Of a DNA stretch of 64,000 nucleotides, positions 1 through 60,866 are shown one piece after another. The position numbers and the translations under genes are program-made. Each line of letters starts with the position of its first letter. Position 1 is the stretch's first letter. This DNA comes from Mycoplasmatales bacterium. Its GTDB lineage: Bacteria > Bacillota_I > Bacilli_A > Mycoplasmatales > Mycoplasmataceae. Where the stretch lies: assembly GCA_965261505.1 (NCBI GenBank), contig OZ253448.1:394807-458806 (forward strand), written 5' to 3'. The notes under the pieces were generated by a model that worked only from the letters and a program-made list of their open reading frames with translations, ran no database searches and was not told the origin of the DNA.

Positions 1-2526
1 CACAGCAGTTTGTAAAGCAGTTTTAATACGGGCATCAATATCACCATCTCCTGTTTTTCCTCCTGCTCCAGTAATATCTACTTCCCCCCTAGGAATTCCA
101 TTTTTAATTAAGGATTGGATTTCAACTCTGGTTCTATGAATTTTAACTTGAGTTAAATCAACAGTATCAGTTGCTTTAGGAGTAGCATCATCTGTAATGC
201 TTAGTTTTACTGTATTGATTTGTTCATCCCCCTTTAATGTAGTACTGCTTGCGTCAGGAAAGGTAATGGTACTTATATCATAGTCACTTAAACTATACTG
301 AGTTTGAATCGCTTTTTTAAGCACTGCTTGAGTAGTAGCATTAGCTAAACTCTTATCAGAACCTGCTGGAATACTAATTTCGGTAGTAGTAGGGTTAGTA
401 ATTAAGGCTTTAATGTCAGCAGTTGATCTATGGATTTGTACTTTAGTCAAATCCACAGTATCAGTGTTCCCAGCACTTTCTGTAATGACAGCACTTACTG
501 GATTATTGGCTTCTGCTGCGTTTAAATTACTTCCTGTAAAAGTAATTTTTGCTGCTTCTTGTGCAGTAAGCTTAACATCACTATTAGCAGTAACTAAAGA
601 GGCTCTTAAAGCTGTAACGGTTGCTGGGTTAGTAACACTAACATTAGCCCCTGTTGGAATTCCTACTATTAAAGCTGTTCCTATTTTATCTGCAATTTTA
701 AAAGCTTGGTATTTAGCAGTATCAGCTGTAAACCTAGCAACTTTAATAATAGTGTCAGCAGATGTTGAAGGTGTTTGATCATCTTTAATCTTAAGCGTGA
801 CATCCTCTCTAGTATCGGCAGTAAGAGTTTTTGAAGCGTCCACATCAATGCTAAGTTGGTTTAAGTCATAAGAACTTAACTGAGGATTATTAGCTTTAAT
901 AATAGGAAGGATGAGATCAATGTTAGTTTGGTCTAATTTATCATCAGAACTTTTAGCATTGATAAAACTAACAGCTAAGCGAGCTACATTATCTAATTTA
1001 GCTTGAATTTGAGCTGCAGTAGCGTGAATTTGTACTTTAGTTAAAGTAATAGTAGTAGTTTTTGAATTTACTGTAACTGTAGTAGTAACAAGGTTGTCTG
1101 TTTCATCATCTGCTAAGTTCCCTTCTGGAATGGCAAAAGAAATTTTTGCTAAGTCATCTTCTAATAAAGCAGGATTAGCTTCTTGTAAAGAAGTCTTGAT
1201 AGCTTTAATCGTATCTGCATTACTAATAGCTACATTAGATCCTGCTTTAATTGCTACTAATAAATTAGGGTCTATTTTATTTGCTATGTTATCTGCTGTG
1301 GCTTGATCTGCGTCAGCCACACTTCTTCTAGTTACTTCAAGATTAAACTGCACAGGAGCAGAAGTACCATTTTTAATATCAGCTTTAATAGTAACAGGAG
1401 TGTCCTGAGTTAAAGGTGTTGGAGTTGATTTACTAACTGGAATAGAAATTTGGGTTAAATCTCATGCGGTTAAAGTATCAGTATTAAGGCTATTAAAAAT
1501 ATTTTGAACTTTATCCGCATTAACTTGAGTTAAATTAGCTTCATCACTACTAATACTAATGTTAGTTCTGATATCTTTCGCTGCAATTTGAGCAGCTGTT
1601 GCTTGAATAGCTACTTGTAAAGGTACAGAAGCTTTTGTTTCAGTACCTATTTTAATGTCACAAGTTACTGGTAAAGTTTTTTCTGAACCATCATTAATTA
1701 AGTTAGTACTATTAAAACTAAAGATAGAGTCTGCTTGGAAACTTAAGGCTGGATTAGCTACTTTTAAAGCAGCAATTAAAGCTTTAATAGTCTCTGGATT
1801 ACTAGTACTTTTATTAGTATTAGAAGCAAGTAATAAATCTTTATTAGAGATTTTTTCTGCTACTTTCCCTGAAGCATTGAGCATTACTACTTCTAATTTA
1901 TTGACAGATTGTTTTTGAGATGCAATTTTAAAATTAATTGAGGTACCTGCTAAAACATTAAAATTAAGTTTGCTTAAATCATCAAAGCTAATTTGGGTTA
2001 AATCATATTGAGTAAGCTTAAAATTAGCTGTTTTTAATCCTTGCTTTAAAGCTTTAGCTTTAATAGTAGGATCAGTAGCTGCTGTTTGTTCTGCTTGAAA
2101 ATTAAATTTAATACTAGTAATTTTTTTAGTAATTTGAGCTGGAGTAGCATGAATCGAAACAAATAAAGTAATTTGAGCTGTTTGGTCTTCTACTTTAATA
2201 GTAGCAAGGACAGGAGTCGCTTCTTCTGAACCATCATTTTTAAGTGCTACTTTAGTAGCAAAACTAAAAACACTCATGTCTACATTTTGAAGCCCAGGGT
2301 TTAATTGCTTTAGTAATGCTTTCATAGCTGCAATTGTTTTAGGGTCTGATGTTGTGGGAAGAACACTAGAATCTAAAGCTAAATTAGGGTCAGTAATTTT
2401 ATTCTTGATGTCATTTGCTTCATTATTATCATTAGGTTTTTTATTATTAGTTGTGCATGCTGCAACACTAATAGTTCCAGTAGTTAAAAATGTAGTAGCA
2501 GCAAGTAGGCCTAGTAATTTTTTCAT
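1..2526 (-). CDS. Multi-repeat surface lipoprotein, 3' end beyond left edge
   Basis: Starts MKKLLGLLAATTFLTTGTISVAAC (signal peptide plus lipobox Cys). Track ORF 1462..2526 continues in frame through TGA at 1462-1464 with no TAA/TAG down to position 1. Body is reiterated ~90-100 aa modules (I.NP..S.P.G.N..T..A....ANP.L...DL..I.F). Confidence 0.85.
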
Positions 2527-2659
2527 ATTAATATCTCTTGTTTTTTATTAATAATAGTTTAACATAAATTAATTTTCTGGTTAAGGTGGAAACATTTTAA
2601 AATAATTCTTTAGTAAAGATATTTTATTAAATAAAAGGGTTGAAAAAATTAATTTTTTA

Positions 2660-2668
2660 TGATAAAAT
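2660..2668 (+). promoter_or_regulatory. Candidate extended -10 (TGaTAAAAT) for the 2706 gene
   Basis: tgataaaat lies ~38 nt upstream of ATG 2706. This argues against the TTG at 2640 used by the ORF track. Confidence 0.3.
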
Positions 2669-2705
2669 CTATACAGATTTTATATTTTTAAAATTAATAT
2701 TTAAA

Positions 2706-3593
2706 ATGGAAACTTTAAGCAATCAAAAACCTGTTAACGCAAAAATCATTAAAGAAGGTGTTTTAGAAAAAATTAATTTTTTAAAGGAACACCGTAAAAC
2801 TTTTTTTGATGAAAAGCAAAAAAGTTTTGTTTTTTTACAAAAAGATATTCCTAAAAAAGTGATTTTACAAAATAAAAGAAAAGTCTGATATAAAGACTTT
2901 CATAAATTTCCTCAAGCAGTATGAAAAGAAACCTATCATATTAATCCTGAAACTGATAAAAAGTGCATAGCTTTTACTTTAGCAAAAGATGATATTGCTA
3001 AAATTCAAATTTTTTATCAAAAATATTATTCTAATGTGTCTTTTAAAAAAATTAATGAGTTATTAAAAGAAAAATTTAATAATCATTTTCAAACAGCTTA
3101 TATTATTAAAACAACTTTTAATAAGATTTTAAATTTTCAATTACCTAGTCATGTAAATTTAAAAGATATTTTATTTTTGATAAATAAAATATTGAATTTA
3201 AGTAAAATTTTAAAATTTAAATTTAACCCAAAAATAAATTGTCAATCTTTTTGACTTAATAACTATAAAAATGATTTTTATGAAATTATTCATAATAAAG
3301 GTTTTAAAAATGCTTGAAAAGAAGATACAAATAAAAATGATGCTAAATTAAAGAATTTAAAAATTTTAAGAGATTTATTAACACATTTAGATTACAAAAA
3401 AGAACAAGAAAGCAAAAAATTTATTATTTGTAATGATTATTTTTTAACAGACGATTATATTTTTTTAGAATTATTTGGTAATTATTGAAATAATGAAAAG
3501 AAAAAAATTTGCAAAATTCTTATAGAGCAATTTTCAGATATTAAAGAAAAATTTATAAAACTTTTTATAAAAAATATGAGTTTAAAATCTTAA
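2706..3593 (+). CDS. Hypothetical protein with Rx4H (HEPN/Abi-like) motif
   Basis: Track ORFs 2640..2888 and 3036..3254 share a frame and join through TGA codons to TAA at 3591-3593. ATG at 2706. ILRDLLTH (R-x4-H) is encoded at 3369..3386. The stop lies 2 nt before the Fic start. Confidence 0.7.
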
Positions 3594-3595
3594 TT

Positions 3596-4621
3596 ATGAT
3601 GAATGATAAATATAAATATAATCTTAAAGAAGAATTATTGAATTATATTAAGGATCCTCAAAAAGATGCTAGATTTTCTGCAGAAGAGTGTATTGAATAT
3701 ATCGAAAATTTTATTAAGAAGCATAATTTATTAGATGAAGTTAAAAATTATAGTCAATTTGTTTATCGGGAACTTAATATTTTATGAAATCAAAAAATTA
3801 TTATTCGTTTTTCATGAGGGAATTATTTATATAAAAGAGCAGAATATTTCTCTCCAGATATAGCTAAAATTGATTTTAATAAAATAAAAACTAATTTTAA
3901 TGAGAATGAAGTTAAAAAAGCCTTAAGATATTTATCAGAAGCAGATAATCGAATCAATGAAAAAGCTTTTTTCAGAGAATCTTTATCTAGTTCTATTATT
4001 GAAGGTTCAAGTGTAAACCTTGATAATTATAATTATCGTAAAAAAAATCAGGACGATATTGAGATAAAAGAATTGAATAATCAAATATTAGTTTTTGAAT
4101 GATTAAATAAAAATGATTTAAAAATGAATCATGAACTTTTAAAAACTATTCATGAGAAAATGTTTTTTAATATTATTAATAGCTCTCGAAATCATTCCCA
4201 ACATGCAGGTGTTTATAAAACATCTATTAATTTTTTTACAAATGGAATCGTCCCTTGCCTACCAAGTGATGTTTTTAATGAATTAAATAAATTTATTGCT
4301 TTTTATAATGAAAAACCTTCTTCTATTAAGGATGCCTTTTTAAAAGTAGGATTTATTCATGCCTGGTTTGAATTTATTCATCCCTTCCCTGATGGAAATG
4401 GTCGTGTAGGAAGAATTTTAATTAATCATTATTTAAAATATCATAAAATTATTTCTTTTATGAATTTTAGAATTAGTGAGACTTTAGAAAAAAATCGTGA
4501 AGAATATATTGAGAATTTAGCTAATCAAGCAATTAATAAAAATTATCTTTCTTTTATTAAATGGTTTATGGATACTCCTTTAGCTTTAACAATTAAAAAT
4601 ATTAATCAAAATATTAAATAA
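3596..4621 (+). CDS. Fic-domain protein (class II, N-terminal inhibitory helix)
   Basis: Track ORFs 3596..3787 and 4124..4621 are in the same frame and joined by TGA codons. Canonical HPFPDGNGRVGR at 4379..4414. Autoinhibition motif S-x-x-x-E-G (SSIIEG) at 3989..4006. Confidence 0.9.
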
Positions 4622-4715
4622 ACAAAAAAAGTCTTTATATAAAAGAAGATTTAATAATTAAGTTAAATAGTTTTATTAAATAAAAGTAAAGAAAATAAAA
4701 CTCTATGAAAATTCT

Positions 4716-5399
4716 TTAAAATGTTATTACTATCCCTTTGATTAAATCACTTGGATTATCAGGATTTTTAAATTTATTAAATTTAGTCAAAGTTAATTCT
4801 ACACTTTTTTCAATCTTTAACCGAGAATTCTTATTAAACAATTCATATGTTTTAAGACTCATCAAAACTTTGACCTTTTTTAATTCAATTTTGAAGTCCT
4901 CAAGATATTTAAAAACCCTGCAAGGATGATCAATAATCCACATACCTCTTACTCTCAATGATGTTATTTTTAAAGGATCTAGATTTTTAAAATTTGCAAT
5001 TTCGTTTGTTTTTAATGATTCTAATGATGTATTTATATTGTTTTTTATTTTACTTTTAAAAGAATTATAAATAAATGATGATGCAGCATATAAAAGTCCA
5101 TCTAAAATTCATAAATCCTTTATTTTATTATCTATAACCCTACCAATAACATACATAAAAGGTATTTTTTTATCACCAATAATTTCTTTACATTTTTTGG
5201 TAATTCTTACATTATCTGTTGCTTTTAAACTTTGTTCAGGAAAAGAACTATTAAGATGAATTATAGATGTAGAATTAGTCTTTTTAATCTCAAAAGCAAT
5301 TTTTGGTGTTCTTGATATACAGTCTGGAGGATGATTAGCAGTACCTTGATAACATCACGCATCAGATAAAGAAATATAATCTGCCTTCCCAGCCAACAT
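4716..5399 (-). CDS. Candidate type II restriction endonuclease, PD-(D/E)xK
   Basis: Track ORF 4716..4958 extends upstream through TGA codons to ATG 5399 (684 nt). Contains HPPDCIS..(11 aa)..FEIKK, a PD...ExK arrangement. Sits immediately downstream of the m5C methyltransferase on the same strand. Confidence 0.6.
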
Positions 5400-5471
5400 T
5401 AATTTAAAAAAAGCTTCTAAACCAGTCCAATTTCTTGAATTTTATTTTTATAATTACCTACTGGTTCTTCA

Positions 5472-6512
5472 TTAATTAAAAAAGATTGATTCTTTGCTAG
5501 AATTACTAAGCTCTCTAAAAGGTTCATGTTGTAATTTTAGTTTTTTTAATATACTTTTAGCAATTATTTTAGCAAGTTCTACTGGAACAGCATTCCCTAC
5601 CATCTTATAACCGTCGTTTATTTTTTGATAATAAAAAATAAAATCCTTAGGAAAAGTTTGAATATTAGCACACTCCCTTACACTAAGTCTTCTATAAAAA
5701 TTAATTTTACTTTTAACAAAAATAAATTTATTGTTATTTACTTTAATCATCCTAGGTGCTTGTGGATGAAGAGGGGCATGTCTACCACTTGCTTGAATTG
5801 TAAAAGATGGTTCATCATAACCCCTTACTCTATTGCGTGACATATAAATAGAAGAAAAATTTCCAATCATATATTCATTGTTGTTAATTGATGCGGGATT
5901 ATGATAATTTTTATCTAAAGCAGCAACAGGCTTGATAGCATCGTTCAAAACATCTTTTAATAATTTTTTATTATTTTGTTTTTTAGGGAATTCATATTTT
6001 ACATTCATTTCTTGCTTAAAACCAATTAAAAAAACTCTTTTTCGTGTCTGTGCTACCCCAAAATCATTAGCGTTTATTAAATTTAAAAAGTAATCGTACC
6101 CATATTCATTAATTTTATTTTTAAATCAATTTAAAAATTTATCATGCTTTTGGAATAAAATTCCTCTCACATTTTCTATTACAAAAAATAAAGGTTTTTT
6201 ATGTTTTAAAATTTTTAAAAAGGTAAAAAATAATTCCCCTCTTTCATCATCTATTCCTTTTTGAGTCCCTGCTTCACTTCAAGATTGGCAAGGAATACCA
6301 GCAATGATGCCATCACAATCAGGGATATCATCAATTTTAATATTATTGATATTTTTTTTATTTAAAAAAGTGTTTGGATGATTTGCCTGATATGTTTCTC
6401 AAATAGCTGGATCAAATTCATTAGCCCAAATAACATTAAATCCTGCTTGTTTAAATCCTAAATCAAGTCCTCCACATCCACTAAATAAAGATACTATTTT
6501 ATGTTTTTGCAT
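5472..6512 (-). CDS. DNA (cytosine-5)-methyltransferase, M.HaeIII-like
   Basis: [20 protein letters not shown] (motif I), GIPCQSWS (IV), ENV (VI), QTRKRVF (VIII), GNAVP (X). The TRD (..[41 protein letters not shown]..) resembles M.HaeIII as I recall it. Track ORF 5472..6008 extends through TGAs to ATG 6512. Confidence 0.93.
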
Positions 6513-6584
6513 TAATCTTTTGAAAATAATTTTACAGTTTAATTTATTTTAACTTTTTTAAACTGAACTAATAGATCTAAAATA

Positions 6585-7541
6585 TTAAGCCTGTGGCTTC
6601 ATCCCAACAGAAATTGCTACATTCCCAATAGGGTCTGAAGCATGAGGGACATTAACATAAACTATGACATCTTCGGCTGTAGTAGTTAAAGTAATGTTAG
6701 GAGTAATGGCTAAGTATGATATTTGATAAAAATGCAGCTTCCCAGATAATTTTTGCAGTAAATCACGATTAATCACCTTAATTGTGTTTTTATTACTTGT
6801 GTTAGGAGTGTTTCCATTAGGAACCTCGATCTCAATTTTTTTACCCTTATTTTTTAAAACATTGGTTAAAGTACTATTGCTTAATGTAGCTACAGTTGCA
6901 ATGTTATGAACAAAAACCTGGGGATTATTTTGATCCACATAATTATCAAAAGCTAATTTAGTAGGAGTGTTTGTATTAATCTTTAAGGCTTGAATTTTAG
7001 CACCTTCATAAGATAAATGTAGATGGTTAATGTCATAATCACTAGCTTGAGGATTAGCAGTTTTTAAAGCCTTTTGGTATTTTGCTAATAAGGTTTTTTC
7101 TGTTAATAAGTTTAAATCACTTGGATCTGGTAACTTAATGGCTTGTTGGTTATTAAAATGACTTGCCATAGTTTGGTTAGAAGGGCTTAAAAAAACATTA
7201 AGGTTTAAACTAGCTACTGCACCTTTTTGGGTATCAATACTTAAAGGTACTGAAACAGTTTGGTAGACAATTAAATTAGCCTGAGCAACCTTAAAAAAAG
7301 CTATATCAGTTTTTTTTAGTAAATGGTTATTAATTAAAAGGGCATGCAAAATAGCTGCTTTAGTATCAGCATTAATGGTGTTATCACTAACATCAGGTCT
7401 TAAAACAATGCTAGGGTTTGTAATTTCTTTTTTAATATCTTCTGCTGTAGGAATAACTTCATTACTACTACAAGCAATAAGGTTAGAAGCACAACTACTA
7501 GTAATGCCAAATGCTACTAAACTAAAAAGAAACTTTTTCAT
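6585..7541 (-). CDS. Lipoprotein (modular family)
   Basis: MKKFLFSLVAFGITSSCASNLIAC lipobox. Intact 318 aa ORF ending in TAA. Confidence 0.85.
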   Translation of the reverse strand: MKKFLFSLVAFGITSSCASNLIACSSNEVIPTAEDIKKEITNPSIVLRPDVSDNTINADTKAAILHALLINNHLLKKTDIAFFKVAQANLIVYQTVSVPLSIDTQKGAVASLNLNVFLSPSNQTMASHFNNQQAIKLPDPSDLNLLTEKTLLAKYQKALKTANPQASDYDINHLHLSYEGAKIQALKINTNTPTKLAFDNYVDQNNPQVFVHNIATVATLSNSTLTNVLKNKGKKIEIEVPNGNTPNTSNKNTIKVINRDLLQKLSGKLHFYQISYLAITPNITLTTTAEDVIVYVNVPHASDPIGNVAISVGMKPQA

Positions 7542-7569
7542 GCTTAGCCTACATTAGCCCAAAATGATA

Positions 7570-9153
7570 TTATTTTGACCCTAATGTAACCAATAAGTTA
7601 ACAATTCCTTTTGCTTGTGGTGAGGAACCATATTTACATCCTATCTGCACAAGTACAGGTCTTCCTGATGCCAAAACTACACTATCTTGGTCAGGCTTGT
7701 CAAATGTTAAAGATGTCTTGTACTCTTTAATTCTAGGATTGCCTGTAGCTACCGCATCTTGAATAGCTGTTTTAGTAGCAGCATTACTTACTGCTGGATT
7801 AGTATTTAGCGGAACAGTAATGTTTTTGTCAGTAATAGCACTTAAAATTTCTCCAGAAGACGGACTAGCTATATCAATGCTAAAGCCAGTAACATTAACA
7901 GTAGTTTGACCAGGGATTACTATATCAAAAGCAAGAGAAGTATCCCCAGCACTTGCAAGAGGTATATCACTACCTGCTCCTAATGTAAATGTTTCAAGAG
8001 TAGTAAGGTCATAATCTGTAATAGTAGTTCCATCAGGAGCTGTGTTTTTTATGGCTTGTTTAACAGCATTATGAGTAGCAATTTGGGCAGCGGTAGGTTT
8101 TGCTCCAGGAGTAGTAGGTCAGCTTAAATCAGGATCAGTATCAAAAGGAACAGCTATTTTTTTAGTAGTATAACCATTAAATTTGGCTGCTAGATCCGCA
8201 ATTACAGGAGCCATTAAGACCTTAATATCTTTACTAGCTGACTCTCCATCCACAGTAAAAATAATTTTATAAGATACTTTAACATCAACTTGTAAATTAG
8301 GAGCTGCTTCTCCAGAAAGTGATTTTATTGTAAAAACACTAGTAGTAGGGGCGTCTGCATCTAAACCAGCATTACTGGCCTTTAATGCATCTAAAATATT
8401 ATCTTTATTAGTAGTTTGAGTTGGATCCTTACTGTTATTATTAGCAATTGCTATATCATTTACAGCAATGTCTTTCACAAAACGATCCGCTGATGGTTCA
8501 ACTGCCACAGTTACTCCTGTTACTTGTACTGTTGCTTTATTTTTATTCACAGTTAAATTAATATTAGTACTAGAAGCAGTAGTAATTGTTATATTTTTCG
8601 GTATAACTATTTTTTGAAGATCACTATTTGATAATAAAGGGTTATTCCGCTTTAGACTATCTATAATATCATTTCTTACTCCTAAATTATTAGTATTATA
8701 AGTAACGACATCCCCCTTTTGATGATAACCTTGTTTGTAATAAACCAAAGCTTTGTTTGTAATTTTACTACTAATTTGCTGAGCTGTATCATCGTCCATT
8801 GTTATGCTCAAGGTAGCATAAGCTACATCTTTTTTAACAGTGCTAGTTACTTTTATGTTACTAGTAGATCCATTATCAAGCCCTGCACTAGAAAAAGTTA
8901 ACTTAGTTAGATCATCATCAGTTATGCTAGAGTTAGCTTTTTTTAAGGCTGATTTAATAGCTGTGATAGTGGCTGTGTTAGTAGTATCTGGATTAGTGTT
9001 CCAAGGCACACTAAACGATTTGTTTTTAATTTTATTAATAATTGCTTGAGCTGGACTAGGAGGGGTATTTTCTTTACTACCACAAGCAATTACACTAGAA
9101 GTTGCTGACGCACTTAAGGCTAGTGCTCCTAAAATAGATAAAAGTTTTTTCAA
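7570..9153 (-). CDS. Lipoprotein (modular family)
   Basis: MKKLLSILGALALSASATSSVIAC. Track ORF 8119..9153 continues through TGA 8119-8121 to TAA 7570-7572 (1584 nt). Confidence 0.85.
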
Positions 9154-9251
9154 AATAATAAGTAATAATTAAACTTGATATAAATTACAAAATCACTAAT
9201 GAATCTGTTTGCAATATAATAATTATAATAAATTTTAATAATTTTTTAGCA

Positions 9252-10166
9252 TTAATCTTTTATGCTTTTTTGAATTTCTGTCCCTTTTCCTAAACAACCA
9301 AACCAAGTCACTAATTCAACAAAAATTTTTCCTAAAGCTTGCATTCCTGGCTCCATAATGTTTGTGACATCATAGCCTTTGCCAATAGTATCTTTTCCTG
9401 CTTTAAAATACTCATGCAATGCTTTTTGAAAGGCTAACTTACATTCAGTAGAGACATTAACTTTAGCAATTCCCATACTGATAGCTTTTTTAACTTGTAC
9501 TTGAGGAATTCCTGAACCCCCATGAAGTACTAAAGGAAGATTTGCAGTTTTGTTAATAGTTTCTAAAACATCAAAAGATAATCCTTCTCAGTCTGCAGGA
9601 TAAGGTCCATGAATATTACCTATTCCTGCAGCCAGGGCTGAAAGTCCCAGGCTTTTTAATTTAACTGCTTGGGCAGGGTCTGCTAACTCTCCTCTTCGAA
9701 TCATCCCGTCTTCTTCTCCTCCAATGCTTCCTATTTCTCCTTCCACAGAAACATAATATTCTTGTGCTAAAGGAATAATTTTTTGAAGCGTTTTATAATT
9801 ATCTTCAAAATTAAGTTCAGATAAATCTGCCATAACACTAGAATATCCTGCTTTAATGGCAGCTTCAATTAAAGGAACTCTAGTAGCATGATCCAAATGA
9901 AGAGCCACAGGAACAGTAATGTTTAAATCCTCTAATAAACCATTAATCATTCCTACTACAGTTGTAACTCCTCCCATATATTTAATAGCTCTTTCTGATG
10001 TTGCTAAAATTAAAGGAGTATTAGTTAATTGTGCTGTAATTAAAAATGCTTTAGCAAATTCTAAGTTGTGAATATTAAAATGTCCTATTGCGTAATGATG
10101 CCTCTTAGCATGAGCAAGCATTTTAGTAATAGGACTAAGTTTTTTATGATAAATTGGTTTTTCCAT
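9252..10166 (-). CDS. fba: Fructose-bisphosphate aldolase, class II
   Basis: Track ORFs 9588..10166 and 9252..9476 are in one frame joined by TGA. Contains ..VALHLDH.. and ..LPLVLHGGSG.. motifs. Confidence 0.92.
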
Positions 10167-10340
10167 ATTTCAAAAATTTGTTCTTGTTAAAAATGTAAAT
10201 AAGTATCTTTATAAACATTATATTAGATTAAGAAAGTGAATAATACTTTAATACTTAAAGTAAATGACTGAAAGTATTTTCACTTTAATTTTTACACTTA
10301 TCATTATAAAAACTAGAAATTTATTGAAATATTTTATTTA

Positions 10341-11137
10341 CTAGATTCCTTTAACATAAAAATAAACTGGATTTTCTTTAGTAAAGCCAAGTTTTGGAAG
10401 ATACATTTCACAAAGGACTGGTTTACCCTTAATAATTGTAAACTTTTTATAGGTTGCATAAGAATCTAAACCATCATCTAAGCCACCCATTGAACTTCAA
10501 GATGAATTTAAGGTATAACTTACCTGATCTTTATCCCATTCATTTGGTTCAATTTTTTTAGCTCCTCCCATAGGGAATAATATAGCACCTTCTTTAGAGT
10601 TATTTCCTGAATGAGTTAATGCATGCTTTTCTCTACTATAATTAGGAGCTATTATTGAGGCTGGAATTTGCTTGGGTTTAGGTATGAAACCTTTAATTTC
10701 TACATTTAATTCCTCTCCTAATTCTCATAAAGCTTCAAGATGTAACATAACGCCTTGAGCTAGAACCTTTTTTAAACTATCCTTGTTACTAGGAGCATGC
10801 AGATAAGATGCTTTTATGTTATTTCTAATCCCGACAACATGTAAACATTGATTAATTTTTTGTAATGCTTTTGTTAAGCCTTTTTCTTCCATAGAGCTGG
10901 TTTTATTAACATGCTTAATTCAACCTCCTCATGTTGATAAATGAGATTGGGCTGCTACTTTCAGATACGCTTTATTAATAATGGCTTTTTGAGCCTTACC
11001 TCAAGTATTAAGATTATCAGATTCAAATGGAGAAACTGGATTTAATTTTAAAGGCTTTTGATTATTACATGCATTAACAGCACTTAACATTGACTAGAAA
11101 CTGCTTATACTGCTAATAAAGATAAAATTTTTTTCAT
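10341..11137 (-). pseudogene. Lipoprotein with disrupted signal peptide, sharing the C-terminal module of the 58.7-64 kb array
   Basis: ATG 11137 gives MKKILSLLAV then TAA. A shifted frame hits TAG, then MLSAVNAC..(ATG 11090) stays open for 750 nt to TAG 10341. The C-terminus ..WSSMGGLDDGLDSYATYKKFTIIKGKPVLCEMYLPKLGFTKENPVYFYVKGI matches the array family. Confidence 0.6.
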
Positions 11138-11422
11138 TGTATGATTTTATAGTTTTGTTAACTTAATTTTTGATAAGAAGTTTAGTCATAAAAGATTATC
11201 CTTCTTACAAACCTCAGAAATATATCATAAAAGATAAAATTAAGCAAGTTTTGCTTTTATAGGACTGAAATCATCTTAATAAATTTAAGTAAAAAGGCAT
11301 GTAAACTAAGTTAATGTGCCTAATTATTCAAAGGAAATTAATTAAAGAATTTAACTATATTTATATAAATAAATTAAAATAAAAAAAATTACTTTTAAAA
11401 TATGGAAATTAATTTATGAAAC

Positions 11423-12406
11423 ATGAATAACCCTTTAAAATTTATTGATTTATTTGCAGGTATTGGTGGATTAGGATTGCCTTTTAGAGAATTAGGAATG
11501 AAATGTGTTTTTAGTTCTGAAATTGATAAATTTGCTTGTCTAACATATGAAGCTAATTTTCATGAAAAACCTTTAGGAGATATTAAAAAAATTAATATTA
11601 AAGATATTCCTGATCATGATTTATTATTAGCAGGATTCCCTTGTCAACCTTTTAGTATGATAGGGCAAAGACAAGGATTTAATGATCAAAAAAAAGGTAA
11701 TTTATTTTTTTATTTATTAAACATTCTTAAAAATAAACAACCAAAAGCTTTTTTATTAGAAAATGTACCAGGCATTAAAAGCATAAATAAAGGAAAAACC
11801 TTCATTTTAATTAAACATTTATTAAATGAAGTAGGTTATGATCTTTTTATTTTAGAGGAAGATGCTAAAGATTATGGTCTTCCTCAAAGACGTAAACGAA
11901 TTTATTTTATTGGTTTTAGAAAAGGCTTAAAAATAAATTTTACTTATCTTAGACCTATTTTTGAAGAAGCATATATTGGTTCCTTCATAGAAGAAAATAA
12001 AACTGGATATGCTTTATCAAATAACATAATTAAAAATTATTTATTTAAAAAACATGATTCAAAACCAGAAATTGTTGATACAAACAGCGAAAAACAAATC
12101 AAAACTTTTGTAGCAAGCTATCATAAAATTCAAAGACTTACTGGAACTTTTGTAAATGATCATGGAAAAATAAGGTTATTAAGTGAAAACGAATGTAAAT
12201 CCTTAATGGGCATTCCTAGAAGTTTTATTTTTCCTGTTTCAAGAACTCAGATGTACAGACAAATAGGAAATAGTGTAGCAATACCAGTTGTAAGAGCAAT
12301 AGCCAATAAAATTAACTATTTTTTAAAAACTTTACAAAATGACAAAAGCAGAAAAAATTATCCAAAATATTCTTCAAGAGAATCCAGAATTCAAAAAAGT
12401 GCATAA
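11423..12406 (+). CDS. DNA (cytosine-5)-methyltransferase
   Basis: FIDLFAGIGGLG (I), GFPCQPFS (IV), ENV (VI), QRRKRIY (VIII), GNSVAIPV (X). Intact 327 aa ORF. Confidence 0.93.
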   Translation: MNNPLKFIDLFAGIGGLGLPFRELGMKCVFSSEIDKFACLTYEANFHEKPLGDIKKINIKDIPDHDLLLAGFPCQPFSMIGQRQGFNDQKKGNLFFYLLNILKNKQPKAFLLENVPGIKSINKGKTFILIKHLLNEVGYDLFILEEDAKDYGLPQRRKRIYFIGFRKGLKINFTYLRPIFEEAYIGSFIEENKTGYALSNNIIKNYLFKKHDSKPEIVDTNSEKQIKTFVASYHKIQRLTGTFVNDHGKIRLLSENECKSLMGIPRSFIFPVSRTQMYRQIGNSVAIPVVRAIANKINYFLKTLQNDKSRKNYPKYSSRESRIQKSA

Positions 12407-12917
12407 CCCATCTGACTTTGTTAATGAATGTTATCAATTTTATTTAAAAAAATATAACACCTCTAATAACTTGAATGGTTTAGTATTTGAACAAATCATT
12501 ATTAATTGTTTGCTGAATTGAGATATAAAAATATTTTATACACAAGCTAAATTAACTTTTATACCAAATATAATTTATGATTTAGTTTTATATAACAGAA
12601 CAACTCCAGTTATTTTAAGTTTTAAAACATCATTACGCGAAAGATGAAAACAAGCAGATTTAGAAGGGATGGCATTTAAAAATGTTTATAGAAAAGGAAT
12701 AGTATATCTCATAAATTATTCTAAAAAAGAAAATCTCACAAGAAATAAAAAAAATGATCAAAATTTTGCCATTGATCAATTTATTTATGCTGGCGGAAAT
12801 GATTTTAATCATTTAATTAAAAAATTGAAAACTATATCTTTTTATGAATGTGAAAAAATACATGTTTTTCAAAAATTTATAGAATATAAAAATACAAGGA
12901 AATCATCTAAAGTATAA
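12339..12917 (+). CDS. Candidate type II restriction endonuclease
   Basis: Track ORFs 12339..12521 and 12669..12917 share a frame and join through two TGAs (579 nt). Contains ..YDLVLYNRTTPVILSFKTSLRERWKQ.., a nuclease-like D...xK plus (S/T)xRERWKQ signature. Overlaps the methyltransferase 3' end by 68 nt. Confidence 0.6.
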
Positions 12918-13267
12918 ATAGAAAGGTTTACGAAGAAGACTTTATTTTAATACTCAGTATAACTAGGATACAAAACTTAATGTTATAGACAAAATATTAA
13001 TTCCAAAAAACACATTTTTTAATTGAATTATATTATTTAAGTGTAATCCTGACTTCTAATTTTAATTCTTACACTAAAGTATAAAATTGCTTAAATTAAA
13101 TTAATAAAATATTAGAAGTAAAAAAAAATAATTTAATATTTCATTAGAAAGTTAAATTTACAAATGAAAATTGTCACTAGACGCCTTTTGTTTTAATTAA
13201 TTTTTTTTAACTTTCGATATTAATATTATTTTTAATTTCATAAAGAAATTATAAGGAAGAAAACACA

Positions 13268-13894
13268 ATGTTTTTACAAAAAATTGTTATTGGCATAGCC
13301 CTTGGTAGTGTTGTAGGGTCTGGTTTTTCACAAACCGTAAATGTTAGTAGCTTGTCTACACCTGCTAAAATAAGTACAATTAGTGATGGATATATGCCTT
13401 TTAATCCTTTTGCGTTTGTACATGAATATACGGCAGATGGTAATGTTTACGATTATTATAGAAATACTGCCTTCCCAGTGCAAACTCCTAATACAATTGC
13501 TAATGGTTTTGCTTTCCAACTAACTTCAAAATCAATGCAAGATATGCTGAGTGCATGAAGTATAGCAGGTAATGGAGCAATGCTATCTTACATAACTGGT
13601 TGTCTTGATAATTGAACAAAATATACAGGACAGTTTGTTTTATCCAAACAATATCGTCAAGATGCACAAAAATACGAAGGAAGAATGGTTGAACAAAGTT
13701 TTGATGTGAGTAAACTACCTCTTGCGCAATTCATACGCAATGTTTTAAATAGTCACCAAAATCTTTATCTCAATTTTTATTCACAAATAAAAACAGTAGG
13801 GCCTAATGTAACTTTTTATGATAAAGCTCAATTGTATAATCCATTAACTGGTGGAAGCTTAACAACTAATTATGTTCATAATTTCGATAATTAA
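13268..13894 (+). CDS. Hypothetical secreted protein
   Basis: Track ORFs 13268..13558 and 13685..13894 share a frame and join by two TGAs. N-terminal hydrophobic signal MFLQKIVIGIALGSVVGSGFSQ. Confidence 0.65.
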
Positions 13895-14022
13895 TAATTT
13901 ATAGTAATTAATACTAAATTATTAACAAAAATTGATAAAAAAGCTTAAAATATTTTAGTAGTGATAGATTCTAATTTTTTAAACATTTTCTACTAAATAA
14001 TAAATAATATAATCACTACTTG

Positions 14023-58700: not shown

Positions 58701-59204
58701 TTAATCCCCTTCAATGTAAAAAGGACGAGGGTGATCTTTTGTAAATCCTAGTATTGGTAAATACATTTCACTAAGGGTAGGCTTATTATAAATAATTGTT
58801 ACTGGTTTATAAGAAACATAAGGAATTAGTGACTCCACAAGTCCCCCCATATTACTTCACTCTTGATTTAAAGTTGAAGTTACTAGATCGCTCTTCCAAT
58901 CAGAGGGTGGCATTTGCTTTCTACCTGCAATATTAATTATAAGAGGATCTGTTTTAGAAGCATGTGACGGGTCATCTAAAAATTTTTTTTGGGGACTATA
59001 GTCTATAACTAATTTTTCAGCAAATTTTACTTTAATATCTGGAATTATTATAGCAGGTATTATTTTATTTTCTTTAATAGGGTTTTCTATAGGATAAAGA
59101 GGAATAGGAGGCTCTTTCTTTTCGCTACAACCACTAACAACATTAGCTAAAGGACTAAAAAGTGCTATAACAGTTATTAAAGATAAAATTTTTCTCATAA
59201 TCAT
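58701..59204 (-). CDS. Small lipoprotein, array copy 1
   Basis: MIMRKILSLITVIALFSPLANVVSGC. Track ORF 58857..59204 reads through TGA to TAA 58701. C-terminus ..WSNMGGLVESLIPYVSYKPVTIIYNKPTLSEMYLPILGFTKDHPRPFYIEGD. 167 aa. Confidence 0.85.
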
Positions 59205-59255
59205 TTTTAATTAAATTAACATAGTTTATTAAATTATATAAAAAACTAAAATAAT

Positions 59256-59735
59256 TTACTCCCCATAGATGTAAAAATATCGAGGGCGGTCTTTTGTAAA
59301 ACCTAATATCGGTAAATACATTTCACAAAGAACCAAGTGGTTAGGAACAATTGTAACAGGTTTAAAGCTTACTAGAGGATATAACTCTGTACTTAGCCCT
59401 CCTAGTGATCTTCATACATCCTTTAAATCTTCAGCTACATTATCTTTAGGTCAATCCTTTGCTAAAATAGCCTCAGAATTATGAATAAGGTATGGTATAG
59501 GTGATTGTTGTGAACCATTTAAAGGATTATTTAAAACTTTTTTTTCAGAACTATAGGTTCTAACTAATGTAATAGCATATTTTGTTTTAATGTCTGGAAT
59601 TATTATAGCAGTTTCTTTAATAGGATATGGAGGTACATAAGGTAATTGCTTTTCGTTACAACTACTAACAACACTAGCCAAAGGGCTAAAAAAGGCTATA
59701 ACAGTTATTAAAGATAAAATTTTTCTCATAATCAT
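59256..59735 (-). CDS. Small lipoprotein, array copy 2
   Basis: ..VVSSCNEKQLPYVPPYPIKE.. Reads through two TGAs to ..VLCEMYLPILGFTKDRPRYFYIYGE. 159 aa. Confidence 0.85.
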
Positions 59736-59783
59736 TTTTAATTAGATGAACATAGTTTATTACATTATATAAAAACAAACAAT

Positions 59784-60287
59784 TTAATCACCTTCAATGT
59801 AAAAAGGGCGTGGATTCGCTTTTGTAAAACCTAACAAAGGAAGATACATTTCACTCTTGGTAGGTTGATTATAAATGATTGTTACTGGTTTATAAGAAAC
59901 ATAAGGGATTAGTGAATCTACAAGTCCTCCAAGATCGCTTCAATCTAGATTTAATAGCGTAATTATTTGCTTTATCTGTCATTCAGAAGGCAGAATTTGT
60001 TTGTTAAATCCTACAGAAATTGTGATAGGGTCTGTTTTAGAGACATTTGAGAAGTCATCCAAAAAATTTTTTTGAGGGCTATAATCTATAACTAATTTTT
60101 CAGCAAATTTTACTTTAATATCTGGAATTATTATAGCAGGTATTATTTTATTTTCTTTAATAGGGTTTTCTATAGGATAAAGAGGAATAGGAGGCTCTTT
60201 CTTTTCGCTACAACCACTAACAACATTAGCTAAAGGACTAAAAAGTGCTATAACAGTTATTAAAGATAAAATTTTTCTCATAATCAT
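59784..60287 (-). CDS. Small lipoprotein, array copy 3
   Basis: N-terminal half identical to copy 1, distal half different. C-terminus ..KSEMYLPLLGFTKANPRPFYIEGD. 167 aa. Confidence 0.85.
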
Positions 60288-60338
60288 TTTTAATTAAATT
60301 AACATAGTTTATTAAATTATATAAAAAACTAAAATAAT

Positions 60339-60818
60339 TTACTCCCCATAGATGTAAAAATATCGAGGGCGGTCTTTTGTAAAACCTAATATCGGTAAAT
60401 ACATTTCACAAAGAACCAAGTGGTTAGGAACAATTGTAACAGGTTTAAAGCTTACTAGAGGATATAACTCTGTACTTAGCCCTCCTAGTGATCTTCATAC
60501 ATCCTTTAAATCTTCAGCTACATTATCTTTAGGTCAATCCTTTGCTAAAATAGCCTCAGAATTATGAATAAGGTATGGTATAGGTGATTGTTGTGAACCA
60601 TTTAAAGGATTATTTAAAACTTTTTTTTCAGAACTATAGGTTCTAACTAATGTAATAGCATATTTTGTTTTAATGTCTGGAATTATTATAGCAGTTTCTT
60701 TAATAGGATATGGAGGTACATAAGGTAATTGCTTTTCGTTACAACTACTAACAACACTAGCCAAAGGGCTAAAAAAGGCTATAACAGTTATTAAAGATAA
60801 AATTTTTCTCATAATCAT
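60339..60818 (-). CDS. Small lipoprotein, array copy 4 (identical to copy 2)
   Basis: Offset exactly 1083 bp from copy 2 with an identical translated ORF. Confidence 0.85.
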
Positions 60819-60866
60819 TTTTAATTAGATGAACATAGTTTATTACATTATATAAAAACAAACAAT

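Follow-up and report, generated by a model that had tools for sequence, protein, structure and literature searches.

Modules in which a Fic enzyme works with a partner, as a toxin-antitoxin system or in defence, are already known, and in conserved two-gene operons the Fic/Doc protein is almost always the toxin (PMC2701414). Here we analysed two adjacent genes, called A and B, in a 64,000-nucleotide stretch of Mycoplasmatales DNA (contig OZ253448.1; the whole stretch is called the window). Gene B encodes a class II Fic enzyme related to SoFic, and gene A, directly upstream of it and coupled to it, encodes a protein of a new family. The reading that we favour, tentatively and with slightly less than even confidence, is that the pair makes up a Fic-based toxin-antitoxin or defence module of two genes, with A as the regulator of the Fic effector B. 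New in this pair are the family, the size and the position of the partner, the way in which the domains of the Fic protein are rearranged, and an occurrence limited to organisms that use genetic code 4.

Among described enzymes, those of the SoFic type are the nearest to B, and for these the questions of silencing, triggering and targets are still open (PMC12249575). The inhibitory helix of wild-type EcSofic does not prevent its toxicity, which depends on the C-terminal domain, and the product of a neighbouring gene, AS1, of 47 amino acids, neutralises the enzyme (PMC12249575). B resembles SoFic and EcSofic in combining the catalytic motif HPFPDGNGRVGR with an N-terminal SxxxEG helix, in its PADLOC SoFic match, and in having the SoFic structures 3eqx and 3zcn among its Foldseek matches; the EcSofic-AS1 system is also similar in that a Fic enzyme is paired with a neighbouring partner gene in a defence-island-like setting. 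Unlike SoFic, B has no C-terminal domain, carries an extra N-terminal domain of about 90 amino acids, and gave no detectable match to Pfam Fic_N. Furthermore, SoFic is a single-gene system, whereas A is an obligate upstream partner in all four loci where the pair was found, and whereas AS1 is small and encoded downstream, the partner of B has 295 amino acids and is upstream and coupled.

The nearest SoFic-like relatives of B (about 30% identity; proteins P0005 and P0011, loci L085-L089) have no coupled upstream gene. At L085-L089 the SoFic-like gene is instead followed, 35-125 nucleotides downstream on the same strand, by an open reading frame (ORF) of 52 or 63 amino acids, in an AS1-like layout. 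There is no room for such a downstream ORF in the window, because the spacer after B measures 94 nucleotides and the next gene is convergent. These relatives are found in defence or mobile settings. The Fic gene adjoins a Multi_ubiq-ThiF-BubE cluster in L085, L086 and L087, of which only L086 also has an upstream PhdYeFM/ParE pair, and it lies beside two phage-type integrases in L088.

Class I Fic pairs, namely VbhT-VbhA, EcFicT with its antitoxin and Fic-1-AntF, are similar to A-B in that they are described as single operons in which the partner gene precedes the Fic gene, and the Fic protein as an AMPylating toxin controlled by its neighbour. In those pairs, however, the (S/T)xxxE(G/N) motif is supplied in trans, whereas it is absent from all four A proteins and B has its own. 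Since B carries its own inhibitory helix, it belongs to class II. The antitoxins of class I are proteins of about 60-80 amino acids. In the Fic1-Fic2 module of C. fetus, a class II Fic acts as the antitoxin of a two-gene system (PMC5651007). This is like A-B in that a class II Fic has a dedicated operon partner, there even as the neutralising component, but both C. fetus partners are Fic proteins with the inhibitory helix acting in trans, whereas A is an unrelated new protein.

A further comparison is with HepT/MntA. The HepT toxin has an RX4HXY motif whose tyrosine is AMPylated by MntA, an MNT antitoxin with the motif GSX10DXD (PMC7641770), and this neutralisation of a HEPN toxin by AMPylation had been correctly stated in a preliminary description of the window made from its letters. 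A-B is likewise a two-gene module with an AMP-transferring enzyme, and an R-x4-H followed by an invariant tyrosine in A echoes RX4HXY. The transferase, however, is a Fic enzyme and not an MNT (there is no GSX10DXD), A has no detectable HEPN fold or profile, and histidine and tyrosine are separated by 2-3 residues in A and by 1 in HepT. HepT is also a small, all-helical protein of about 130 amino acids; A by contrast has about 300 and is predicted to be mixed alpha/beta, and the A-B gene order is reversed relative to mntA-hepT.

The coupled gene pair and its homologous loci

The two genes and the signals around them were located as follows.

2706..3593, + strand: gene A, encoding a basic protein of 295 amino acids (isoelectric point, pI, 9.6) with 17.3% guanine plus cytosine (GC), member of a new four-member family
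3596..4621, + strand: gene B, encoding a class II Fic (Fido) enzyme of 341 amino acids, SoFic-related, 22.4% GC
3591..3598, + strand: junction TAA-TT-ATG, consisting of the A stop codon, two nucleotides and the B start codon
2640..2668, + strand: promoter-like site of A-B, with TTGAAA, a 17-nucleotide spacer and the extended -10 TG-A-TAAAAT (10 of 12 matches)

Genetic code 4, in which TGA is read as tryptophan, is required for both ORFs; there are five in-frame TGA codons in A and three in B, and ORF calling with table 11 left both genes in fragments. Given this code, everything that the preliminary description had stated about the sequence itself proved to be accurate, including the distance of only two nucleotides between the stop codon of A and the start of the Fic gene. 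Alignment to the N-termini of the homologues places the start of A at ATG 2706 and not at the upstream TTG 2640. Both genes are on the + strand, whereas nearly all remaining ORFs of the window are on the - strand, and the pair has, as described earlier, an extended -10 of its own on this minority strand. The promoter-like site was the top scorer of the regional scan and lies 38 nucleotides 5' of the A start codon; the call is a consensus match only, the regional count of such sites being not above that in shuffled sequence. A terminator scan between B and the endonuclease gene beyond it found no intrinsic terminator, only short AT-rich hairpins, and an Rfam scan of positions 1-14000 found no family.

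An exhaustive HMMER search of 1.84 billion representative proteins gave only three relatives of A.

P0122: 303 amino acids, 42-43% identity to A, E 3.6e-47
P0123: 301 amino acids, 33% identity to A, E 3.5e-24
P0124: 281 amino acids as called, 26-30% identity to A, E 8.9e-05

With a word-indexed homology search, A alone or as a profile returned only itself and P0124. The A-family profile had no match in genome, viral and metagenome contigs, tblastn of A had none in plasmids and phages, and neither A nor B was found among GTDB species-representative genomes. The loci encoding the three relatives are arranged in the same way as the window.

L001: A homologue 119-1030, Fic gene 1033-2088, gap 2 nucleotides
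L002/L003: A homologue 2627-3532 (L002), Fic gene starting at 3534 (L002), gap 1 nucleotide
L004 (Tara): A homologue 886-1731, Fic gene 1740-2846, gap 8 nucleotides

The A homologue in L004 probably starts at GTG 769. All four A-family loci, the window included, are on low-GC, code-4 contigs, and in every one of them a B-clade Fic gene begins 1-8 nucleotides downstream of the A gene. The partner Fic proteins all have HPFPDGNGR[VI]GR and are 54, 46 and 34% identical to B. This is the same rank order of divergence as for the A proteins (42, 33 and 26%), which argues for co-inheritance of the two genes. When all ORFs of about 190 further Fic loci, drawn from genomes, metagenomes and viral contigs, were screened with a hidden Markov model of the A family, none matched. 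Profile scans with the B clade in the same kinds of sequence found only Fic relatives of at most about 37% identity, as partial matches, and none of these had an A-like neighbour. Within this clade, which is very small and has been poorly sampled, A and B are strictly linked in either direction. Co-occurrence in other genomes had been put forward earlier as a check on the proposed two-gene module; the synteny is kept in four of four loci and the roughly 190 other Fic loci are without A. These results support the view of A-B as a dedicated, translationally coupled two-gene module.

We also considered that A might be no true partner at all, but a spurious or decaying ORF, or a chance neighbour, upstream of a stand-alone SoFic-type gene. 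The description of SoFic as a single-gene system would fit this explanation, and so would the properties of A, which has no known domain and, at 17.3%, the lowest GC among the window's listed ORFs of at least 150 amino acids. A is nevertheless intact, with 26-42% identity over four loci and 35 invariant columns in the four-sequence alignment; it is always found 1-8 nucleotides upstream of the Fic gene, and it diverges in parallel with B. Because both synteny and sequence are conserved, this explanation is effectively refuted, and we regard it as extremely improbable.

Protein B, a class II Fic enzyme

Three elements of B are needed for what follows.

4379..4414, + strand: Fic catalytic motif HPFPDGNGRVGR, residues 262-273
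3989..4006, + strand: autoinhibitory motif SSIIEG, fitting (S/T)xxxE(G/N), residues 132-137
3623..3832, + strand: extra N-terminal domain, residues 10-79, with winged-helix-like topology in the AlphaFold (AF2) model

B matched Pfam Fic at 1e-15, above the gathering threshold, and PADLOC SoFic at 1.2e-36. The PADLOC match covers model positions 17-258 of 361 and leaves 259-361 unmatched; the protein ends 15 residues past it, and the C-terminal domain of SoFic is absent. The AF2 model of B, built on an alignment of 62 homologues, is confident (predicted local distance difference test, pLDDT, 86; predicted TM-score, pTM, 0.81). In Foldseek searches it matched the M. marinum Fic 7cb8, Dde_2494 (4rgl), FICD, SoFic (3eqx/3zcn) and CdFic (4x2c/4x2d), all with probability 1.00, and the query-normalised TM-scores were 0.38-0.48 for CdFic and about 0.5-0.6 for the other four. 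Residues H262, P263, D266, G267, N268, G269, R270, G272 and R273 are invariant in the 62 Fic homologues, and so are S132 and E136 of the inhibitory motif. SSIIEG ends a predicted helix (residues 118-135, high pLDDT) and is 125 residues N-terminal to the catalytic histidine. An intact Fic active site and an N-terminal SxxxEG, both of which the preliminary description had read from the sequence, are accordingly present in a protein modelled with a Fic fold. On sequence and model together, we take B to be a genuine class II Fic enzyme and a predicted AMP-transferase, one that is SoFic-related but not a canonical SoFic.

The N-terminal domain of B is predicted as helix-strand-helix-helix-strand-strand with pLDDT 75-88. 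No Pfam helix-turn-helix family matched it, and the winged-helix call is one of predicted topology alone. The extra region of about 90 residues is absent from ordinary SoFic-like relatives, and the other Fic homologues align from about residue 90. We propose, from the model, that the C-terminal domain of SoFic has been swapped in B for an N-terminal winged-helix-like domain.

The inhibitory motif differs in one member of the clade. In B4, the Fic protein of L004 and partner of P0124, it reads SAQIAG, with the inhibitory glutamate replaced by alanine, and the catalytic motif HPFPDGNGRIGR is intact; the remaining B-clade motifs are all S/T-S-I-I-E-G. B4 could afford this loss if a separate partner keeps the activity of the enzyme under control or absorbs it. 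As this glutamate is invariant in the 62 wider homologues, we counted its loss as a point for control by the partner. The PADLOC SoFic match, the class II Fic fold and the toxicity of EcSofic were counted for B as the effector.

Protein A and the proposed direction of control

The preliminary description had noticed in A a protein of no obvious family with ILRDLLTH, an R-x4-H, in its C-terminal third, and had read the R-x4-H as a signature of HEPN/Abi_2-type RNases. The observations are correct, in that A has no match in Pfam, PADLOC, NCBIfam, PHROGs or the PDB and that ILRDLLTH occupies residues 220-227, with R222 and H227. The motif also falls into the part of A that is best conserved.

3354..3398, + strand: most conserved block of A, NLKILRDLLTHLDYK, residues 217-231, with invariant K219, L221, R222, H227, Y230 and K231

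By sliding-window conservation, the top 15-column window of the family alignment is at about residues 217-231, and its consensus is N-L-K-x-L-R-[DNE]-x3-H-x2-3-Y-K. R222 and H227 are the only invariant arginine and histidine in the family, and R-x4-6-H occurs exactly once in each of the four members. Taken alone, an R-x4-H is weak evidence because it is frequent in shuffles of A (6.8% for R-x4-H and 19% for R-x4-6-H) and because B itself has two such matches; the R-x4-H of A is meaningful because it is conserved across the family.

This conservation gives some weight to an alternative in which the roles are exchanged. A would then be a nucleic-acid-targeting toxin acting through R222 and H227, either as a divergent HEPN protein or as a convergent equivalent, and B would be an AMPylating, type VII-like antitoxin that modifies Tyr230. 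AMP on Tyr230 would block the active site of A, Glu136-dependent deAMPylation may reverse the block, and the pair would be a Fic-based analogue of HepT/MntA. Several properties of A agree with this. HEPN families have a polar residue (N, D or H) right after the arginine of R-x4-6-H (PMC3710099), and the only invariant arginine and histidine of A, in its most conserved block, belong to a motif R[D/D/N/E]xxxH, invariant in four of four members, which also has a polar residue at this position. An invariant Tyr-Lys stands 2-3 residues past the histidine, and it is the tyrosine of RX4HXY that MntA modifies in HepT (PMC7641770). In the AF2 model, residues 228-237, including Y230 and K231, have pLDDT below 50 and form a predicted flexible loop, a type of segment that Fic enzymes modify, and the whole A family is very basic (pI 9.4-10.0). 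From the side of B, the loss of glutamate in B4 would be harmless in a dedicated antitoxin enzyme, and the C. fetus Fic1-Fic2 module is a precedent for a class II Fic antitoxin (PMC5651007).

HEPN genes also have known genomic associations. Abi2 genes are embedded in restriction-modification (R-M) operons, and, as a further point for A as the toxin, the HEPN genes PrrC and RloC neighbour Fic/Doc genes in R-M operons (PMC3710099). The latter are known HEPN-Fic neighbourhoods and not a dedicated pair. Like the Abi_2 proteins AbiD and AbiF, A has R-x4-H with a polar residue in its C-terminal third and adjoins R-M genes, and the Abi_2 proteins, with about 300 amino acids, are similar to it in size. 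None of the A proteins, however, gave a Pfam Abi_2 or PADLOC Abi match, and the predicted structure of A is not all-helical.

The searches for a HEPN relationship were negative throughout. No HEPN-clan or Abi match was found by hmmscan of all four A members against Pfam and PADLOC (E <= 10), and no HEPN or Abi match by a scan of A against NCBIfam (E <= 1), a scan of all four members against PHROGs (E <= 1), or a search of PDB sequences with the A profile (E <= 10). The AF2 model of A (pLDDT 73.6, pTM 0.54), which was built on a four-sequence alignment in a run where three out of five models scored below 58, is of a mixed alpha/beta type and not a four-helix bundle. Its strands are at 33-44, 74-93, 179-184 and 240-272, and the R-x4-H segment is a short helix of nine residues (218-226) between strands, followed by a disordered loop at 228-237. 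Foldseek of this model, the kind of fold comparison that the preliminary description had suggested, found nothing at E <= 0.001 in the PDB and BFVD, and neither list of top 50 matches included a HEPN protein; the best match was an uncharacterised giant-virus protein (E 0.019), and the other weak and non-significant matches were to PAS/LOV, Cache and longin/roadblock-like folds. The four-sequence alignment has no invariant glutamate that could belong to the HEPN Ex3[KR] element, the only invariant acidic residues being D35, D96 and D190, none of them in a conserved Ex3[KR] context. The motif itself is R-x4-H-x2-Y in the window and R-x4-H-x3-Y in the homologues, and not the HXY of HepT. A divergent helical core spanning residues 94-230 may be present, as the motif segment of the model is of low confidence. 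The assignment of A to HEPN/Abi_2 made in the preliminary description is nevertheless not supported.

All of these negative results weigh against A as the toxin. In addition, the nearest characterised relatives of B are toxins or effectors and not antitoxins, and an antitoxin enzyme that has to act constantly would not be expected to be autoinhibited, whereas the inhibitory glutamate is kept in three of four B proteins. A literature search turned up no account of a Fic enzyme acting as a type VII antitoxin. On balance we think it unlikely, though worth keeping in mind, that A is a toxin silenced by B.

The reading that we favour is the reverse, with A as the regulator and B as the effector. 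The order of the genes, partner and then Fic, together with their coupling, is a common antitoxin-then-toxin layout, and we counted this for A as regulator. Under this scheme, A-B would be a horizontally acquired, translationally coupled operon, found so far only in code-4 (Mollicute-type) DNA, and B would be an effector that arrests growth by AMPylating an essential protein of the host. A would be made first and in step with B, through termination and reinitiation at TAA-TT-ATG, and would bind B and hold it in check; perhaps it also senses a trigger. It would then stand in for the small downstream antitoxin of AS1 type found with single-gene SoFic. The invariant loop K-x-L-R-x4-H-x2-3-Y-K of A is the part that probably contacts B. 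Its Tyr230 could occupy the Fic active site in the manner of a pseudo-substrate, and may itself be AMPylated. The module may serve in defence against phages.

Some of our results do not sit easily with A as regulator of a toxic B. At 295 amino acids A is much larger than typical Fic antitoxins, and as it has no (S/T)xxxE(G/N) motif it would be unable to act like a class I antitoxin. Its top-conserved residues (Arg, His, Tyr and Lys) resemble those of a catalytic or phosphate-binding site more than those of a simple protein interface. As to B, the inhibitory glutamate is kept in three of four members of the clade, where the need for an external inhibitor is not obvious, the C-terminal domain on which the toxicity of EcSofic depends is absent, and the score of B with the NCBIfam SoFic equivalog model is 42.4 bits against a cut-off of 550. 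Finally, the sample consists of four loci from poorly sampled organisms, three of them from one pair of sequencing runs.

Genomic setting and meaning of the pair

Beyond B, the window contains two R-M pairs within a short distance, and a direct repeat flanks A-B.

4716..5399, - strand: type II restriction endonuclease of the NgoPII family (Pfam RE_NgoPII 2.6e-42), convergent with B across the 94-nucleotide spacer
5472..6512, - strand: cognate C5 cytosine DNA methyltransferase (Pfam DNA_methylase 1.5e-92)
11402-12917, + strand: second type II R-M-like pair, with a C5 methyltransferase of 334 amino acids (Pfam 1.1e-87) and a putative endonuclease of 192 amino acids
2622..2637, + strand: left 16-nucleotide direct repeat TTTTATTAAATAAAAG, core of an imperfect 44-nucleotide repeat (2603-2646), 84 nucleotides before the A start
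4671..4686, + strand: right 16-nucleotide direct repeat TTTTATTAAATAAAAG, core of the other 44-nucleotide copy (4652-4695), 50 nucleotides after the B stop

The putative endonuclease of the second pair has a weak RE_BsaWI match (E 0.007) and overlaps the methyltransferase by 68 nucleotides; this pair has 22-25% GC and is about 5 kilobases (kb) from the first. GC is 30% in the window as a whole, 22-27% in the R-M genes and 30-37% in housekeeping genes. The setting of A-B, a low-GC region adjoining a type II R-M pair, resembles a defence island, in agreement with the small island and the convergent type II R-M pair recognised in the preliminary description.

The sequence TTTTATTAAATAAAAG has only two matches in the 64-kb window, even when one mismatch is allowed; in shuffles the mean was 0.19 matches, and two were reached in 3 of 100. 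The repeats could be the ends of an inserted cassette of 2.05 kb, or a coincidence in DNA so rich in AT. L001 and L004 showed no counterpart of the repeat, and L002 and L003 are cut within the Fic gene.

The surroundings of the homologous loci were also inspected. L002 has, at 949-1992 on the - strand, a Mob_Pre-like gene of 347 amino acids, about 630 nucleotides upstream of A3-B3 and divergent from them. The Pfam match is borderline, its 25.4 bits (E 1.5e-05) falling just short of the cut-off of 25.5, and the gene may indicate a mobilisable element. Both L002 and L003 end at one and the same base, which lies within B3. The idea that L002 is a small circular Mob plasmid was rejected, as there is no terminal overlap and the supposed C-terminus of B at the contig start scores like shuffled peptides. 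Downstream of A4-B4 in L004, two adjacent ORFs of 248 and 137 amino acids (4253-5423), both with Type_ISP_C matches, look like pieces of a type ISP restriction enzyme that has decayed. L001 has, 65 nucleotides downstream of A2-B2 and on the same strand, a gene for a Cys-rich protein of 203 amino acids (2154-2765) with no Pfam match; it has no counterpart in the window. From the deviant GC, the R-M neighbours, the Mob_Pre-like gene and the decayed R-M fragments, we infer that A-B is carried on mobile accessory DNA and is not a housekeeping operon.

These features bear on another explanation, that A-B is a non-toxic regulatory pair serving an ordinary cellular process. B would reversibly AMPylate A, or A would be an adaptor that directs B to its substrate, and the winged-helix-like domain of B would bind DNA. 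There is a model for such a system in FICD, a class II Fic that retains its glutamate and is described as a bifunctional AMPylase and deAMPylase regulating one dedicated client (PMC6826200; bioRxiv 10.1101/323253). The presence of the winged-helix-like domain is in keeping with it, and the non-significant Foldseek matches of A are to small alpha/beta folds of sensors or adaptors. The distribution of the pair, however, is extremely patchy, with four loci in 15 billion proteins. The deviant GC, the R-M neighbours and the elements in L002 and L004 do not suit an ordinary cellular process, nor does the PADLOC SoFic match of B, and we consider a purely regulatory pair quite improbable.

The remainder of the window is rich in lipoprotein genes. 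At 58701-63514 on the - strand is a tandem array of eight small lipoprotein genes, alternating between paralogues of 167 and 159 amino acids (MIMRKILSLITVIA..., with a lipobox cysteine), suggestive of a multigene family of surface lipoproteins. Large lipoprotein genes are numerous elsewhere, including on both flanks of the A-B/R-M island. At 90% identity, A, B and also CysS, DnaB, SSB, LysS and the C5 methyltransferase of the window fall into clusters of only 1-2 members among the 15 billion proteins. The host belongs to a very poorly sampled Mollicute lineage.

Fic AMPylases are widespread as toxins and as defence effectors, and A-B is a natural example of a SoFic-like core that lost the regulatory C-terminal domain and gained an obligate, co-evolving partner of about 300 residues. 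The control of a class II Fic by a partner can be tested directly with these two small genes. If Tyr230 is the site of AMPylation, the pair would have arrived at the HepT/MntA logic independently and by way of a Fic enzyme, and if the reading of B as a Fic-based type VII antitoxin is true, B would be the first bacterial Fic with its own operon partner as physiological substrate. To our knowledge, few conflict systems besides R-M have been described in Mollicutes, and a Fic module would extend this short list.

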